Shown: positions 22,837-59,440 of the stretch, piece after piece
Layout of the letters: every line of letters starts with the position of its first letter
Numbering within the stretch: the first letter of the stretch is position 1
Origin: Thermodesulfobacteriota bacterium
GTDB taxonomy: Bacteria; Desulfobacterota_D; UBA1144; Nemesobacterales; JAJCZQ01
DNA: 64,000 bases
Assembly: GCA_965215275.1 (NCBI GenBank)
Contig: OZ244044.1
Span: 1,248,001-1,312,000 of the forward strand
Direction: 5' to 3'
Notes under the pieces: model-generated
Told to the model about the DNA's origin: nothing
Databases searched by the model: none
The model's input: only the letters and a program-made list of their open reading frames with translations
Translations under genes and position numbers: made by a program

Positions 22837-22955
22837 AAAAAACTCCTCTTACTTTGTATAGAACCAATCATACCGCTTAAAGGCAAATATTATATTCATA
22901 GTCTGTCGGTTTGTAAAATTAGGGAATTATAGTAAATAGTTGACAAAAAGAAAAT

Positions 22956-22984
22956 TTGATAAACGGGTCAGAAAATGGTAGTAT
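22956..22984 (+). promoter_or_regulatory. sigma70 promoter for tnpB, probably producing a leaderless mRNA
   Basis: TTGATA-17bp-TAGTAT with extended -10 TG; ATG begins 7 nt after the -10 and there is no SD. Confidence 0.55.
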
Positions 22985-22990
22985 TATAGC

Positions 22991-24214
22991 ATGGTTAGAA
23001 CGATCACAAGAACTGTAAAGGCAGATAGTGGTTTTCATAAAAGGCTGGATGAATTCTTGCAACAGCTTACCGACCTGTATAACGGAGCTTTATATCACAG
23101 ATTAAGATCTTATGACTGGTATGAAAAAACTATCTCTAAATACGAACAGTTTAACGAACTAACTGAGGTCCGAGAACAAGACAAGGAATTTGAAAAGTTT
23201 AATGTTACAGCTCAAAGAAGCGTTCTGGAAAGACTGGATAATGCATATAGTCCTTATTTGAACTATTTAAAGAATAAAAAAGCAGGTAAGAAGGTCAGAA
23301 AGGTGGGCAGGCCAAAATACAAAGGTCCAAACAGACCTGTCAGGAGTTTTGAAACAAACAATTATAAAAACATTGAAAAGATCGGCAGGAGAACGTATTT
23401 AACGATAAAGGGAGTTGGCAGATTATCTTTCAAAGGTAGTGTGCCTGACGGAGTTGTTTTAAAACAACCTAAAACAACAATAAGGATAGTTAAAACAGCT
23501 ATAAGAATAAAAGTCCAGTTTCTATGTGAGTTTACCAGCGAAAAGAAAAGACCTATGGACAGGTCCATAGGGATCGACCTTGGAATTATAAACAGAATGG
23601 CTTTTTCAGATGGAACTAAAATACCAGGAGTTCAGTTGAACAGAAAGGAACTGAAAAGAAAGCAGAGAATTGTTTCAAGAGCGGTAAAAGGTTCTGACAG
23701 CAGAAAGAAGAAAGTTTTATCGTTAGCAAAGGAATGGGAACGAACTACCGATCGTGAAAATAACGCTATACACAGAATGACTACCGAAATAGTAAAAAAG
23801 AACAATCATATAAAGTTGGAGGATTTAAAGATCCAAAATATGGTAAAAAATCCTTATTTATCAAGAAGTGTAACGGAACAGCAATGGGGGAAGATTAAAA
23901 CCCAACTTGACTACAAAGCCGAGATAGCTGGAGGCAAGTTAGTTTTAGTTAATTCCCATTATACAACAATGACCTGTTCTGAATGCGGAAAGGTAAATCC
24001 AAAACTGCCTTTGTCTGAAAGAGTATTCAGCTGTATATATTGCGGTTATTCAGAAGACAGGGATATAAATGCAGGTAAGAATATCAATACTCTTAATGAA
24101 GGAGACTTCATATCGGGTGGGAATAAGGTAGAAATACTCCCGATGAGTGCTAAGAGTATCAGATCAAAAGAGAATGGGGATAGAGGAACTCTGCACTCAG
24201 AACAGTACGAGTAG
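22991..24214 (+). CDS. tnpB: RNA-guided endonuclease TnpB
   Basis: LYNGAL N-terminal motif, RuvC-I GIDLG, RuvC-II LEDLKI, Zn finger CSECG...CIYCG, RuvC-III DRDINAGKNI. Confidence 0.93.
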   Translation: MVRTITRTVKADSGFHKRLDEFLQQLTDLYNGALYHRLRSYDWYEKTISKYEQFNELTEVREQDKEFEKFNVTAQRSVLERLDNAYSPYLNYLKNKKAGKKVRKVGRPKYKGPNRPVRSFETNNYKNIEKIGRRTYLTIKGVGRLSFKGSVPDGVVLKQPKTTIRIVKTAIRIKVQFLCEFTSEKKRPMDRSIGIDLGIINRMAFSDGTKIPGVQLNRKELKRKQRIVSRAVKGSDSRKKKVLSLAKEWERTTDRENNAIHRMTTEIVKKNNHIKLEDLKIQNMVKNPYLSRSVTEQQWGKIKTQLDYKAEIAGGKLVLVNSHYTTMTCSECGKVNPKLPLSERVFSCIYCGYSEDRDINAGKNINTLNEGDFISGGNKVEILPMSAKSIRSKENGDRGTLHSEQYE

Positions 24215-24243
24215 TTGTTTGTCAACTATTTACTATAATTCCC
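24112..24243 (+). ncRNA. Putative omegaRNA (reRNA) scaffold overlapping the tnpB 3' end
   Basis: Stems ATCGGG/CCCGAT (24112-24144) and TGAGTGC/GCACTCA (24144-24199) lie where TnpB omegaRNAs are normally encoded; boundaries unknown. Confidence 0.45.
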
Positions 24244-24259
24244 TAGAATTTAACAGATA

Positions 24260-25060
24260 ATGAATAACAAGGTACCTTGTGCGTTGACGATTGCCGGGTC
24301 GGACTCATGCGGTGGTTCAGGTATTCAGGCCGACCTTAAAACGTTTGCTGCTCTGAAAGTTCATGGACAGTCGGTTATAACCTCTCTCACTGCCCAGAAC
24401 ACTCTTGGTATCCGTTCTGTGTATGATCTGCCAACTGATTTTATTGAGGATCAGCTTGATGCGGTTATGGATGATATAGGGTGTGATGCTGTAAAGATAG
24501 GTATGCTCTCAAATGTCGGTATAGTGAGGTCGGTTTCAAGGAAACTTGAGCAGTATAAAATAGACAAGACCGTTCTGGACCCTGTTATGATATCCACAAG
24601 CGGTAGTAAACTTCTGGAAGATAAGGCCATTTCAGAACTTATACGTATACTTCTGCCTAAATGTTGTTTGATCACTCCAAACGTTCCCGAGGCAGAGACG
24701 ATAACCGGAATGACAATTAACGATTTAACGAGCATGAAACAAGCGTCAGAGGCCATCAGAGATCTTGGATGTGGTTCCGTACTGCTGAAAGGGGGACACC
24801 TTGCCGGATCGGAGTTCTCCTCGGACGTTTTTTTTGATGGGAATAAATTCAGGGAATACAGAACAAAGAGAATTAAAACTAAAAACGTTCGCGGAACCGG
24901 CTGTACGGTCTCATCTGCAATCTGTGCTTACCTTGCTAAAGGTCATAAGTTAAGAGATTCAATAGATCATGCTAAAAACTATATTTTTCAGTCAATTAAT
25001 AATAGTTTTAGCATAGGCAAAGGAAGCTCTTTGTTGGATCATAACTGGGATACTGATTGA
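24260..25060 (+). CDS. thiD: Hydroxymethylpyrimidine/phosphomethylpyrimidine kinase
   Basis: LTIAGSDSCGGSGIQADLKT, VKIGML, LDPVM, TPNVPEAE, KGGH, GTGCT. Confidence 0.95.
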   Translation: MNNKVPCALTIAGSDSCGGSGIQADLKTFAALKVHGQSVITSLTAQNTLGIRSVYDLPTDFIEDQLDAVMDDIGCDAVKIGMLSNVGIVRSVSRKLEQYKIDKTVLDPVMISTSGSKLLEDKAISELIRILLPKCCLITPNVPEAETITGMTINDLTSMKQASEAIRDLGCGSVLLKGGHLAGSEFSSDVFFDGNKFREYRTKRIKTKNVRGTGCTVSSAICAYLAKGHKLRDSIDHAKNYIFQSINNSFSIGKGSSLLDHNWDTD

Positions 25061-25848: not shown

Positions 25849-28602
25849 GGGAATTATATACTTAACTGTGCGAAAACAAAATATAACCTTTGTATATTTA
25901 TGCACTTGACATTCATTAATAATATAAAGTAAAATGAAAAAGGTCATGAACATGTTATTTAGAGTAATACCCCCCCCCATAAGTTATTAATTTCCTTTTT
26001 CTTTCTTCTGTGCTTTGCGTCCATTGGTGCATATGGTCAGACCAGTATTAAGAACTGTGACTCCAGTGCAGCGATCGAAGCTACATTGGAAGTGGGTCGA
26101 CCGGCTATCCGAAGAAATTTAAGTGATGCCGGTTTACATTATTTTCAGATAAATCCAAATGGAAATTTTATTGCAGATATAGAGGTAGAAGATATCACCT
26201 TCTCCAATGATCAGGAATACAGTTTACAGGTATGTGACAGCAATGATGATCTGATAGCAAGTACCACTGAAGTGCATCCGAGTGATGAAGAGTCAAGAAC
26301 GAATGCCACTATACAAACTCGTTTCAGCCCGGGAACGTACTATATAGTTGTGGGAAGCAGTGGACCTACACCCTACGGGGTTCGAGTTCTAGTAGCTGAT
26401 TCTCAAAACTTATTCGATGACTATGACTGTCCAGGTATTACTACCAATTTTCCAAATGATCCCTTATACGGGTGTCAGTGGTATCTGAAACGTCAAGCGG
26501 GTGAGCTTATATTAGGTGAAAAGACAATACCACTCCCTGAAGAAGATATAGACATAAAAATAGAAGAGGTCTGGGATGATAGTGTATTTGGAGCTGGGAT
26601 TAACGTGGCGGTGGTAGATCATGGTATGGACACAGATCATGAGGACCTTGCTGACAACATAGATACCACCCTTTCTCATGATTACTCCGGAAGCGGTGAT
26701 CTGTACAGTCCTTTCAGTGGTCGTGGTACACGTGTAGCAGGCATTATAGCAGCAGTGGGTGATAACAGCCTTGGAGTAAGAGGTGTAGCACCTGAGGCAA
26801 ACATCTACAGTTATAATTTAGCTGATAACTTCAGTGATGCTAACGCAAAGGACGCCATGGTCCGTAATAAGGATATAACGGCTGTATCGGTCAACAACTG
26901 GGGACCGAAGGACCTGCCGGTTCTTACAGAGGCTTCATCGGAGTGGGAAGAAGGAGTGAGAACTGGTATAAGAGAAGGTTTTGGTGGTAAAGGTGTATTT
27001 TACGTATGGGCGGCAGGGGACGGACATGAAGGATCAGACCAGGCTAATTTTAATGAGTATTCCAACTACTACGCAGTAACTACCGTATGTTCAATGGAAG
27101 CTGAAGGTAAGCCTGCTTTTCGTAATAGTTCCTTTTCAGAAGAGGGATACAATCTATGGGTATGTGCACCGGGTTCTTATATTGTAACGACGGACAATAA
27201 CGACAGTTATACTTTTGAGTTCCCTGGAACGTCAAATTCAGCTGCTGTTGTTTCAGGAGTAGCAGCACTGATGCGGGAGGTAAACAGTGATATTAGCTGG
27301 CGGGACCTGAAACTGATACTGGCAGGTTCAACCGACCAAGGAGCTCTTGACCGTGGGTGGAATAGAAGAGCACTTAAATACGGTTCTGATTCAGAGTATT
27401 ATTTTTACAATCCAAAGTTCGGTTTTGGTACAGTAGACACCGCAGCGGCAGTAGAACTTGCAGGGAACTGGACCAACGTTCCACCGCCAATGAGGCCCGT
27501 GACGGTTTCCTCGGGTAATATCGATACAGTTATACCAGACTTCACAACGGGAGGAAACGCGGAAGACGTTTCCGCTGTTTTCACACTGAACGTACCTGAT
27601 ATAGATATACCAGGTACTGAGGTCTTTACGGAATTTATAGAGATAGGTATCAATTTCACTCACCCTTTCTTTCCTTTTTTAAGTATAGAAATAACTTCCC
27701 CTGACGGTAGAGTGTCAAAACTCACTGAGGCATATCCAGCAGAAGCTTTATCACTTTTATTATCTGGCAGATCTCTTACTGTAGACGACTTTGACTATAC
27801 AGGCAGAGAGCATCGTTTTGGTTTAGCCAACCACCTGGGAACAGACCCTGCCGGAGAGTGGACCTTGAAGATAACCAACGCTTCAGTCGCAGGTGCGGGG
27901 ACTTTACACTCATGGAACATTAAGGTCTATGGTCATATGTCTGGGGATACACCTACGTTTAACAACTGGACGATACCAGATAAGAACTACGTGCCAGGAA
28001 CTGCAATAAAGGAAACACTGCCTGAGGCAACAGCAGGGAATGGAGAATTAACCTACAGCCTGTCCCCTATTTTACCTGCTACTGGTTTACCTGCTGGACT
28101 TACTTTCAGTTCAGCTGACAGAGTGCTTAGCGGAACACCAACTGCTGTATCTTCCGGCAGTTATACATATACGGTAACGGATGAAGATGGAGATACGGAC
28201 GAACTCATCTTTACCATCAGGGTAACGACTACGCCACCAGGACCGACAGACCCACCAACAACAGGACCACCGACACGAAGACCGACATCATCAGGTACAG
28301 GCGGAGGTGGAGGAGGATGTGCGGTCTCAGATCAGAACGAAGCTGCTTCTGATCTGCTCACAGCATTGGCATCTCTGATGCTTATACCTGTATCCGTTGT
28401 GATAAGAAGGAAGATAAGGTCTCGGATAAAGGTTTAGTAATGCAGTCCTTTCCAGGACGTTGAACAAACCGGGATCTTTCCATTATTTTGATCTTCAATG
28501 TCCTTATTACAAGGGTCTAACTACAAGGTTTTCCGCCCGATACGAATATGATCTTGTAAAAAACATTTTTATTCATTTGGCGTAGTTACCTATATAATTT
28601 CC
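25849..28602. mobile_element. Possible degenerate TIR-bounded cassette carrying the S8 gene
   Basis: GGGAATTATATACTTAACTGTGCGAAA (25849-25875) versus reverse complement of 28576-28602 GGAAATTATATAGGTAACTACGCCAAA, 21/27 identical. Confidence 0.4.
25934..28437 (+). CDS. Secreted subtilisin/kexin-like S8 protein with P-domain, Ig-like domain and C-terminal sorting tail; frameshifted at a C9 tract in the signal peptide
   Basis: VAVVDHG, GVAPEA, WAAGDG, GTS motifs; P-domain (GEWTLKI...GTLHSWNIKVYG); GGGGGGCAVS-TM-RRK tail. Signal peptide joins ORF 26086-28437 only if C9 (25970-25978) becomes C10. Confidence 0.85.
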
Positions 28603-56042: not shown

Positions 56043-56079
56043 TTAAAAGCGGGAACGATATAGTTTAGTGCCGAAACCA

Positions 56080-56253
56080 CTATTTCTTTACTTTTGTAGT
56101 ATTCCCTCTTGATTTTTTACTGTTCTGTTTTTGTTTATTTATTCCCCGAACCTTATCATAATTAGGTTGTAATAAAGTTTTTAATACTTCGTCCATTGTA
56201 GCTGGTATGTGTGAAATAAAGCTGTTTTTATAAGTTTTATCTTTTTCTGTCAT
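56080..56253 (-). CDS. 57-aa basic passenger ORF (not in the ORF track)
   Basis: MTEKDKTYKNSFISHIPATMDEVLKTLLQPNYDKVRG...KVKK, ending 4 bp from the TIR. Confidence 0.45.
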   Translation of the reverse strand: MTEKDKTYKNSFISHIPATMDEVLKTLLQPNYDKVRGINKQKQNSKKSRGNTTKVKK

Positions 56254-56292
56254 TTTGATTTTTGGGAATTATATTAAAATATATAGTTTATA

Positions 56293-56679
56293 TTAAACTC
56301 TGATATTTTTATCTAAAAACGGACTAAAATACACTCCTTTGCTTTCACCTTTCCTCATAGTAGAAATAACCAATTCTATAACATATTTTATTTCTTTAAC
56401 CATAAGATCAACATCTTTTTTATTTCCAAGCAAACTATCCCCTATAGATACACCAAGCACCGGACATCGGCCAAGAAGTTCATTATTTTCATCAATATAG
56501 GTAAACATTTTATATCCTTTATGTTTACCGTGATATTGTATATCTCTTATATCTTCTAACTCTTCAACAAAAAATTCTTTTGTAGCATCCATACCATACT
56601 TATCTTTAAACTCTTTCTTAACATCTGCTAAGGATGGATTATCAAATTCATTTATAACATCTAAATTAGTATTATTCAT
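56293..56679 (-). CDS. Hypothetical passenger protein
   Basis: 128-aa ORF with GAGG RBS, co-oriented with the RM genes. Confidence 0.6.
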   Translation of the reverse strand: MNNTNLDVINEFDNPSLADVKKEFKDKYGMDATKEFFVEELEDIRDIQYHGKHKGYKMFTYIDENNELLGRCPVLGVSIGDSLLGNKKDVDLMVKEIKYVIELVISTMRKGESKGVYFSPFLDKNIRV

Positions 56680-56702
56680 ATATGTTTCCTCTTCTTATTT
56701 GT

Positions 56703-57407
56703 TCATACCCTCATACTTTTCAGTGATTCTGCTTGAACCTTTTTAACTGGTTCACAATCTATATTCTTCCAAAACTTTATTGATTCTGTGAAATAGTCAA
56801 TTCTACCATTTTCAATTTTAGCAACTTCATTCCTGTAATAATTTACAGCATTGCTACAAAGGTTCAACATCCATTCTTTTTTTGAACTTTCTTTTGTCTT
56901 TATTCTTGCTGAATTTTTGATTTGAATTTGTCCCCAACCTAAAGACCCTATTCTTAAACAGCTCCAGTCATAAAACTCAATAGGTAAAAAACTGACATCT
57001 TTAATTTCAATTTGCGAATTATCCTTAATTTTATAATCTACTCTTAAAACTATAAAATGGTTACTTTGACTTTGCCTGTAGAAGTCGTTTAATACTTTTA
57101 TTGAGACCAGATTTGGCATATTAAAACCGCTGTCATTTACCCTGTAAGTTTTAATATCTATCGCATAGTAGTTGTTTTGTTCGTCATAGAAGGCAATATC
57201 TTCCATAGCCCTACGACTAAATTCTGATTTATAAATCTTAATAATATCGAAGAATAATTTACCAAAACTCTCTTTGATTAACTTTTCTATAAAATCTCCA
57301 ATAACTCTTGGTTCTGTATTATAAAAATTAAAACTTATCTGCTGTTGTTCAGAAAGATAAGTTTTTATTTTCTCTTCGATATATTCTCTTTTATTTATAG
57401 AATCCAT
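56703..57407 (-). CDS. Putative type II restriction endonuclease
   Basis: PD-(D/E)xK-like EDIAF...AIDIKT; overlaps the end of the methyltransferase gene. Confidence 0.65.
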   Translation of the reverse strand: MDSINKREYIEEKIKTYLSEQQQISFNFYNTEPRVIGDFIEKLIKESFGKLFFDIIKIYKSEFSRRAMEDIAFYDEQNNYYAIDIKTYRVNDSGFNMPNLVSIKVLNDFYRQSQSNHFIVLRVDYKIKDNSQIEIKDVSFLPIEFYDWSCLRIGSLGWGQIQIKNSARIKTKESSKKEWMLNLCSNAVNYYRNEVAKIENGRIDYFTESIKFWKNIDCEPVKKVQAESLKSMRV

Positions 57408-58274
57408 TCCTTTCCCAGAAAATTCCTTCTTTATATCCTTGAATGTGTTTTGTATATTCCGCTTGCTCTAATCTCTTTCTTGCTAACCTGCAATAATCGT
57501 TTTCAATCTCAATCCCGATATAGTTTCTTTCAAGTTTTTTAGCCACTACTGCAGAAGTGCCACTTCCAAGAAAGGGATCAAATACCAGGTCGCCTTCATT
57601 ACTGCTACATAAGACGAGTTTTGCTATCAGTTTTTCTGGCTTCTGGGTCGGATGTTCAGTATTTTCAGCCATAGACCAGAAAGGAATTGTTATATCAGTC
57701 CATAAATTAGAAGGAAAAGTGTCTCTATAGTTACACTCCTTAGACTCCGTCCAATCTTTTGGCTTCCCATTTTCTCTATACGGAGCTATGACTTTTTTTC
57801 TTAACTTAACCTTATGGACGTTAAAAGTATAAGTGTTTGAACAGGTAGCAAAAAATATATCTTCCGAACAATTTTTGAAATTAGTTTTAGCCCCTCTCCC
57901 TTTCTCTCTTTCAAAAGTTATTCTATTTCTTACTTTAAAGTGGTTGTTAAGAACATTAAATAATGAACCCGAACTTCTCCAATCGCCAAAAACATAAATA
58001 GAAGCGTCTGGCTTTAACTTCGGCTTAACCGCACTGATCCAGCTTTCAGTGTATTTTTCATAGGAAGCAGGGTCCATCTTTTTAAAAGATGAATTCCTGA
58101 AAGCCTTATTAAGATTGTAAGGGGGATCGGCAACAAGTAAGTCAACAGATAGATCTTTAATTGAATCTATCTGTTCAAATAAATCTCCACATATAACATT
58201 TTCATCTGGTTCTACCCCCCCCCATTACCGTTCAGAGATGATATTGTTATAGTTTTGTTCTTTTTGGATTTCAT
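57391..58274 (-). CDS. Beta-class N4C/N6A DNA methyltransferase, frameshifted at a G9 tract
   Basis: ATG at 58274 reads to GGG GGG GGG TAG; one extra G gives VEPDENVICGD...VADPPYN continuing into ORF 57391-58077 (HPTQKP, DPFLGSGTS). Confidence 0.88.
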
Positions 58275-58360
58275 TTCAACTAATCAAATCAGCGTATTAA
58301 TCTCTTATCATTTATTATTTAACAACCTTATATCAAACTGTGAATGATTAGTCAACATAT

Positions 58361-59299
58361 TTATCGTATCAATTCTTTGTATTTCAATCTCTTACCTGAT
58401 AATCCTTTAACAACAATATTCATCTGATCCATAGTAGGTAAAGGTCGGATATTATGTCTGCCAGCATATTCATCTACATAGCGTTGCAGGTGTTTCCTGC
58501 TCATGAAATGGTAGACCCCAGTATGTCCTCTTTTTAGCATAGACCAGAAACTTTCCATACCGTTGGTATGCGCCTGTTCCTTGATATATTCACCTACTCC
58601 ATGATTAACTGTCTCGTGTTTATATCCCTTCTTATTCAGTCCGCTATATCCTAAATTCTCATCTGTATAGATTGTTGATCCGTCTTGAACTGTTTCCTTG
58701 ATCATATTTTGCAGTTCATCCTTCTTAACGGTTTCTGTTACCTTTGCTTTTACTTTCTTATCTATCCTTGACTTAATACCCACTACTGCGGATTTAGTTT
58801 TAGTGCTTCTACCCTGTGTTCCCTTCACTTTTTTACTGGCATGTTTGTTTCTCTCAAGTCCGCCAACATAGGTCTCATCCATCTCTATTGGAGACAGTAA
58901 AGGATTATCTGACTGCTCGTCAAACGCCTTCCTTATTCTGTGTCCTAAATACCAGGCTGTCGTTTGAGTAACTCCTATATCTCTTGCCAGCTTATGGCTG
59001 GATACTCCCTTTAAATTTGTAGTCATCAAATATATAGCTAATAACCATTGATGCAAAGATAAATTACTACCTTCAAATACAGTGCCTGTTCTGACACTAA
59101 ATCGTTTATCACAATCTTTACACCTATAAGGCATAGTTGCATGTTTAGATTTAGAAGTTCTTACACTTCCACAACGAGGGCAACATTTATACTCATTATC
59201 CTCACCCCAGAGTATCTTCTCAATATGTTTTCTTGCTGAATCCTCGTCTGGAAACATTTTATTAAAATCATATAAACTAACTTTTTTTCTATGTGCCAT
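58361..59299 (-). CDS. IS1595-family DDE transposase
   Basis: Zn ribbon CPRCG...YRCKDC, EMDETYVGG, YTDE, HTNGMESFWSMLKR, HLQRYVDE. Confidence 0.95.
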   Translation of the reverse strand: MAHRKKVSLYDFNKMFPDEDSARKHIEKILWGEDNEYKCCPRCGSVRTSKSKHATMPYRCKDCDKRFSVRTGTVFEGSNLSLHQWLLAIYLMTTNLKGVSSHKLARDIGVTQTTAWYLGHRIRKAFDEQSDNPLLSPIEMDETYVGGLERNKHASKKVKGTQGRSTKTKSAVVGIKSRIDKKVKAKVTETVKKDELQNMIKETVQDGSTIYTDENLGYSGLNKKGYKHETVNHGVGEYIKEQAHTNGMESFWSMLKRGHTGVYHFMSRKHLQRYVDEYAGRHNIRPLPTMDQMNIVVKGLSGKRLKYKELIR

Positions 59300-59440
59300 T
59301 TACTTCTCCTTCGTTTATCTTATGGTAATATATTACCATTTTTAACTTGATAAATCAAGTCATTTTCGGCACTAAACTATATCGTTCCCTTAAAAGCAGT
59401 TACCTGCAGAAACTGATCGTTTATCTGTACACTTATAAAC

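Follow-up and report, generated by a model that had tools for sequence, protein, structure and literature searches.

TnpB-only elements with IS1595-type ends in a Thermodesulfobacteriota genome: copies, one-sided flank motif and predicted guide RNA

The closest described relatives of the locus considered here are TnpB nucleases linked to transposons of the DDE type. The accessible text of PMC10691335 (Altae-Tran et al. 2023) distinguishes six such branches, DDE-1 to DDE-6, with inverted repeats, several of them being mobile, along with solo TnpBs that have matching ends and are proposed to move in trans, while ISL2, IS630 and IS1031 are named as TnpB-linked DDE partners in the accessible sections of a 2026 review (PMC13565253). 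The present element resembles these systems in that the 3′ end of tnpB lies near the end of an inverted repeat. No IS1595-TnpB element is described in the openly accessible literature searched, with the reservation that Additional Files 10-11 of PMC10691335 may include IS1595; the main text of that paper is without this family, its supplement has it as a profile accession, and the part concerned contains no analysis of flank motif or scaffold. The original prediction for this locus treated a tnpB enclosed by terminal inverted repeats (TIRs) as a departure from the usual carriers; IS1595-type ends do distinguish it, whereas TnpB in DDE elements, also as a solo gene, had been published before (PMC10691335, accessible text). 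The arrangement is thus published in outline, and the controlled flank motif together with the scaffold fit is added here.

The IS1595 family, which includes non-autonomous and passenger-carrying members, is described as having GGG-started repeats of ~26 bp and 8-bp duplications (PMC8101967, accessible text). The element shares both features and resides in one genome with NF033547 transposases, but it has no transposase in the unit, its cargo is an RNA-guided nuclease whose predicted RNA includes the right repeat, and its one-sided flank motif is absent from tnpB-free members. TnpBs of IS200/IS605 and IS1341 elements (ISDra2, ISGst) belong to the same protein family with RuvC D-E-D and zinc finger, and the likeness is predicted to extend to an RNA at the 3′ end of the gene, a left-flank motif, a right-flank guide and a stem-loop pseudoknot; unlike them, the element here lacks hairpin ends and HUH TnpA and has inverted repeats and duplications. 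The IS605 transposase reads the target-adjacent motif (TAM), whereas the controls described below suggest that the IS1595 transposase does not. Serine recombinase, typical for IS607, is missing from this genome, while repeats and duplications are present.

In Fanzor RNAs, the scaffold is built in part from repeat sequence and from bases of the flank or the duplication (Yoon et al. 2023, PMC10711439), and the 5′ duplication is read as part of the TAM in section 6.2 of PMC13565253. With Fanzor1/Fanzor2* of eukaryotic cut-and-paste transposons and with IS607 TnpB, as presented in the accessible text of PMC10711439, the system has in common the participation of repeat or flank bases in the RNA scaffold; it differs in being bacterial and in that only the first of the 8 duplicated bases is predicted as scaffold. 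Why a DDE transposon keeps TnpB is an open question in both of these sources (PMC13565253, section 6.2; PMC10711439). Because the transposase seems blind to the motif, yet 40/40 well-defined insertions carry it, the flanks may record the benefit of TnpB to the element, and by supplying the predicted TAM, guide start and scaffold they render this question directly testable. The element would provide a bacterial parallel to the capture of Fanzor by cut-and-paste transposons, and it makes available compact nucleases whose TAM is predicted to be very short.

The tnpB element, its insertion site and its copies

The window, i.e., the whole stretch of 64,000 nucleotides that was analysed, belongs to a genome (G000) represented by one contig of 1.99 Mb with completeness of 99.87%. 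The element and its flanks are composed as follows.

22914..22921, + strand: 8-mer TAAAATTA on the left flank, native motif 1 in the spacer between DUF35 and thiD
22922..22947, + strand: left TIR of IS1595 type, 26 bp
22991..24214, + strand: tnpB, 407 aa, RuvC D196/E277/D358 and C4 zinc finger intact
24218..24243, + strand: right TIR, 26 bp, doubling as 3′ end of the predicted scaffold
24244..24251, + strand: right flanking 8-mer TAGAATTT, native motif 2, a -10-like box upstream of thiD

The unit (22922..24243, ~1.3 kb) carries tnpB as its sole cargo, with no transposase inside. As originally proposed, the gene is intact in its RuvC motifs (D196-E277-D358) and C4 finger and is tightly bracketed by perfect 26-bp TIRs: the arms at 22920-22947 and 24218-24245 complement each other without mismatch (100%) along 28 nt, comprising the 26-nt repeat plus TA, with 43 nt between the left repeat and the ATG and 3 nt between the stop codon and the right repeat. 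The little room expected for an IS200/IS605 left-end hairpin is likewise borne out, since a left-end DNA hairpin was not found, the folding of the left part being matched by that of shuffled sequences (-2.3 kcal/mol, z -0.59). An outward-facing TATAAT is positioned near the tip of each repeat (window 24232-24243 and 22922-22933).

Multiple TIR-tnpB-TIR copies with 8-bp target-site duplications (TSDs), which were to be sought in support of the original prediction, do exist. Eight full copies of the family to which the window copy belongs (family A) are located at different loci of G000, being 84-100% identical and retaining a full-length ORF in 7/8 cases; because homology stops at the repeats in these 8 copies, the tnpB-between-TIRs unit is genuine and not a product of chance. 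Flanks match at 8/8 positions in 4 copies, 7/8 in 2 and 6/8 in 2, so that a duplication at 7/8 or better accompanies 6/8 genome copies, the window copy itself being without it, and the same holds for 32/43 clade-A elements of relatives (see below). No two copies of the family are identical (lowest dS 0.009), and a 326-bp internally deleted copy carries an 8/8 duplication. In sequencing run X5, two loose element ends, which probably represent one insertion, join at a site that is empty in G000 and where the 8-mer occurs once. Since this pre-insertion site holds a single copy of the 8-mer, the duplication is of 8 bp, and the TA duplication initially offered as an alternative is refuted both by this site and by the 8-bp flank matches.

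Two further tnpB families in similar ends were revealed in G000: family B with 8 copies (protein ~45% identical) and family C with 3 copies (~28%). At G000:C1:1616480-1619605, two family-B elements stand head to head with 16 bp between them and one 8-mer each. Units without transposase at G000:C1:17470-21955 and 1898058-1900957 are flanked by two MITE-like ends of 415-446 bp with repeats near those of family A; their cargo by eye resembles ABC ATPase and TPR proteins, and the first of them has an 8/8 duplication. For a 2-Mb genome the IS1595 load is very high, with 31 matches to the transposase and 19 tnpB elements bounded by TIRs.

At the window site, TAAAATTA and TAGAATTT agree at 6/8 positions, precisely as reported at the outset, but their interpretation as an aged IS1595-type TSD did not survive comparison with relatives. 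The empty DUF35-thiD site searched for was found in 4/4 family relatives, representing other species, where both genes are adjacent and element-free. Both flanking motifs are present in 4/4 of these genomes ~20 bp apart, each preceded by TTTG, and belong to a promoter-like array TTGTAA-N17-TAGAAT. Because the two 8-mers are separate native motifs there, an aged duplication is ruled out for the window copy; judging from these other species, ~12 bp are apparently missing at the site, and the loss may have occurred via adjacent deletion or via recombination between two inserts. The element thus interrupts this conserved promoter-like array, which lies upstream of thiD, and with its outward TATAAT may take the place of the array. 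Among four sequencing runs, no contig passing over the element at the window site was found.

IS1595 ends, candidate partners and relatives

The window holds one more element that is relevant to the origin of the ends.

56051..59389, - strand: autonomous IS1595 element with transposase at 58361-59299, control with the same family of ends

This element, brought up in the original prediction because of its TIR, is real, having a 26-nt perfect repeat, an 8/8 duplication and an NF033547 match of 194 bits; its repeat, however, shares 15/26 positions with that of the tnpB element, which rules it out as the best-matching cognate partner. It carries an N6/N4 DNA methylase (PF01555, E 1e-40) and two ORFs without Pfam match, perhaps a restriction-modification pair. 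IS1595 elements with more similar ends were expected in the same genome and are there: profile search gave 31 IS1595 transposase matches in G000, 21 of them over the NF033547 cut-off, and the closest ends, those of the IS1595 at C1:1100815-1102101, differ by 2-6 mismatches across the 8 copies (6/26 for the window copy). The transposase of this element is frameshifted, and contigs from two runs read likewise. Intact IS1595 transposases also reside in the genome, for example at C1:436585-437514 or C1:1539097-1540029, with a repeat that resembles one subfamily over its outer 19-20 bases. None of 20 IS1595 transposase regions has a tnpB match. Where the locus was noticed to lack tnpA and serine recombinase, the genome as a whole gave 0 Resolvase matches at 99.87% completeness and one weak Y1 transposase match located 49 kb from any tnpB element. 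Since its ends match those of IS1595 elements, the tnpB element is likely mobilised in trans by an IS1595 DDE transposase. It has IS1595-like TIRs of ~25 bp and, within its family, 8-bp duplications, while an internal transposase is absent; with only tnpB and no DDE transposase inside, it is provisionally filed as a non-autonomous derivative of the IS1595 family. At window positions 26086-28437, a subtilase S8 is encoded that contains a P-domain and an Ig domain, and similar genes adjoin IS1595-like ends elsewhere in the genome.

Within the phylum, 33/120 genomes matched the tnpB element, and 29 of these are among the 36 genomes of one genus (g10), which belongs to the same order and another family; in its own family, 0/4 genomes matched. 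The set examined comprised 152 tnpB regions from 128 loci of relatives, 80 of which were chosen from the phylum match list and 48 taken as returned, and 19 own loci. A repeat pair was detected in 101 tnpB regions, one spurious pair having been dropped. The tree, calculated in a quick version and with row L007_x as an outlier, joins families A and B, clade A of g10 and ten further proteins (support 99) and sets clade C apart from them, which suggests at least two separate captures of TnpB by the same kind of ends. Homolog search in genome and metagenome contigs returned 80 and 52 loci with only distant TnpBs, the best segments being mostly 26-46%; no GGG-type repeat pair was found among them, and three have unrelated inverted repeats. 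Viral contigs gave 0 matches to the right-end pattern.

The product of the window tnpB matches OrfB_IS605 and Cas12f1-like_TNB among Pfam/NCBIfam profiles and reaches 203 bits with the guided_TnpB profile (cut-off 100), whereas both subtype models remain below cut-off, the IS200 one scoring higher (181 bits) than that of IS607 (107 bits). Its motifs are GIDLG (194), KLEDL (275) and DRDINA (356), with CSEC (329) and CIYC (348) in the zinc finger, and its nearest natural solved relative is PDB 8bf8 (E 3e-28). D-E-D is retained in 7/7 and in 42/42 full-length copies, with dN/dS of 0.20 and 0.14, respectively, and the overall range of 0.12-0.20 signifies purifying selection. The motif regex gave D-E-D in 0/7 family-B proteins, which is a miss of the regex, as family-B sequences show HADxN.

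One-sided flank motif and predicted guide RNA

The predicted motif, scaffold and guide are positioned as follows.

22912..22914, + strand: TG plus the first base (T) of the left 8-mer, putative target-adjacent motif TGT
24112..24244, + strand: predicted core of the guide-RNA (omega RNA) scaffold, based on covariation over 58 element ends
24112-24117/24139-24144, + strand: predicted scaffold stem
24119-24124, + strand: predicted loop pairing with 24238-24243; the predicted scaffold is completed by another stem and by a hairpin that runs through the right repeat
24245..24260, + strand: predicted flank-derived guide, its start and length suggested by register with the TIR-less tnpB ends L007, L027 and L019

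The flank count took in clade-A elements whose duplications match at 6/8 positions or more, with shared sites removed. The base located 5′ of the left duplication (position -9) is G in 40/40 distinct insertions, compared to 7/40 on the mirror side. This is composed of 8/8 in G000 (TG in 7) and 32/32 in g10, with mirror G in 2/8 and 5/32 and background G of 0.19 and 0.25, respectively. Eight of the 43 clade-A elements of relatives were dropped for duplications below 6/8, of which 5 have G and 3 have none as called. The motif is thereby short: G, mostly TG. It is absent from tnpB-free IS1595 controls: with duplications of 7/8 or better, G on either side was registered in 8/24 (Fisher p 1.5e-9) and, for end-matched elements, in 2/5 (p 7e-4), 3/5 having it on neither side, both p values overstating the significance because kin are not independent. 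The first duplicated base is T in 8/8 family-A copies of G000 and A in 28/28 clade-C elements of g10. Controls favour A at this position on both sides (15/24 and 16/24), a two-sided preference by which duplication base 1 would be partly set by the transposase. Families B and C of G000 have A at -9 (3/3 each), and other TnpB clades in similar ends display other flank motifs.

For the RNA, 58 element ends were compared, including 15 from G000. Pairs of the 6-bp stem are kept in 54-58/58 ends with two-sided changes, and the second stem as well as the hairpin through the repeat covary across element ends. The loop GGGA is able to pair with the terminal TCCC of the repeat; pseudoknot pairs 1-4 are formed in 57-58/58 ends and, being nearly invariant, show compatibility rather than covariation, while pair 5 is formed in 45/58 (3 compensated, 13 breaks) and pair 6 in 33/58. 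TIR-less tnpB ends from the same order have the loop GGAAC, matched by the end GTTCAC. From the register with these ends, base 1 of the duplication is predicted to be the last base of the scaffold, the guide to start from base 2 and the TAM to be (T)GT here. The predicted scaffold has 0 matches in Rfam. When the predicted guides were compared with G000 at ≤2 mismatches, no match preceded by TGT turned up, and in the filled sites to which they belong the guides come after CCCT. In 36/37 clade-C and 22/43 clade-A elements of relatives, duplication base 1 pairs with the loop, but such pairing was ruled out as a general rule, family-A copies having C opposite T in 3/8 and T opposite T in 5/8.

Proposed mechanism and alternatives

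The interpretation which we consider rather probable is that of a tnpB-only element with IS1595-type ends, moved in trans, whose TnpB cuts empty sites beside a TGT-like motif. Its starting point is the presence of copies at unrelated loci with 8-bp duplications and with ends like those of co-resident IS1595. An IS1595 transposase supplied in trans would insert the element at AT-rich 8-mers being indifferent to the outer base. The RNA is predicted to run from the 3′ end of tnpB through the right repeat, with its loop GGGA bound to the terminal UCCC of that repeat; the scaffold would end on the first duplicated base, and the guide would begin at duplicated base 2. An empty allele, which has (T)G plus duplicated base 1 right before the guide match, would then be cut and either repaired from the filled allele or lost, while the match in the filled allele follows CCCT and would be spared. 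Such a drive would benefit motif-adjacent insertions only, these would persist, and the one-sided G would be the result. According to the accessible parts of the respective reports, TnpB cuts empty donor joints and raises retention (10.1101/2023.03.14.532601) and fixes new insertions in multicopy plasmids (10.1101/2025.02.20.638934). In the literature searched, a description of the IS1595 excision route was not found. We infer the cutting of empty sites from the strong one-sided flank motif that the compared sequences display. The ratio of 40/40 is very strict for selection acting after insertion and would also be compatible with a one-sided transposase or with insertion steered by TnpB.

It is possible, though unlikely, that the partner transposase itself prefers a one-sided G, TnpB being matched to it and cutting empty sites without creating the bias. 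Correspondence of this kind between TnpA and TnpB is reported for IS605 (10.1101/2023.03.14.532601, accessible part), an absolute 40/40 is easier to obtain at the moment of insertion, 2/4 end-matched controls from relatives have G on the transposase 5′ side, and the A preferred by controls at duplication base 1 (15/24) implies that the motif partly belongs to the transposase. This preference is nevertheless two-sided (15 and 16 of 24), and with respect to G all controls taken together stay at background (8/24), 3/5 end-matched tnpB-free elements having it on neither side; moreover, the motif differs between TnpB clades that occupy similar ends.

A bias that tracks the cargo, is one-sided, tied to the orientation of tnpB and exceptionless could also arise if TnpB bound its own motif and recruited or oriented the IS1595 transpososome, imposing both motif and orientation. 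We regard this steering as quite improbable in view of the intact nuclease residues of TnpB, targeting modules such as Cas12k being, in contrast, without them, and of the 20 IS1595 transposase regions, none of which carries tnpB. If true, a minimal step toward RNA-nuclease-directed transposition would have evolved here independently.

Host start codons give ground for another view of the G. In g10, 16/60 distinct insertions are placed directly after the ATG/TTG of a long host ORF (e.g., L003, L004, L202, L216, L234, L241 and L250), and in 16/16 the right end supplies an ATG in frame, which likely rescues the gene that was hit; in clade C, a one-base difference in the position of this ATG (25 versus 24 nt) is mirrored by an equal displacement of the site (6 and 3 cases). 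Proceeding from this, G could mark nothing but tolerated sites, with insertions behind start codons rescued by the ATG of the right repeat and TnpB as a passenger. Start-codon insertion accounts for a large part of the clade-C motif but does not account for that of clade A, since among the family-A copies of G000 0/8 are situated behind start codons, yet G is found in 8/8, and with start-codon sites removed, G persists in 25/25 remaining clade-A sites, many of them GG, AG or CG. As dN/dS of 0.12-0.20 also speaks against a passenger, the explanation is disfavoured for clade A and, on the whole, very improbable. Hardly credible is the capture of an ordinary IS605/IS1341 tnpB by a MITE, with its own end inside the element and a fixed guide, for although TGTCAA occurs in some right repeats as in IS605 right ends, it is present in tnpB-free IS1595 repeats too and absent from other tnpB subfamilies, the left-end hairpin was not found, the loop GGGA fits the repeat tip where TIR-less relatives have GGAAC fitting GTTC, and in place of the one-off insertion named beforehand as refuting, there is a lineage-wide clade.

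Two observations on the loci of relatives stand apart from the choice between cutting of empty sites and its alternatives. In several cases, one and the same host gene start has been struck by different TnpB clades across genomes (L011/L238; L200/L208/L241; L216/L250), and such starts may be either hotspots or tolerated sites. At L008 (G019:C4) and L009 (G027:C13), which come from another family of the order, TnpB-like genes are followed directly by short CRISPR-like arrays.
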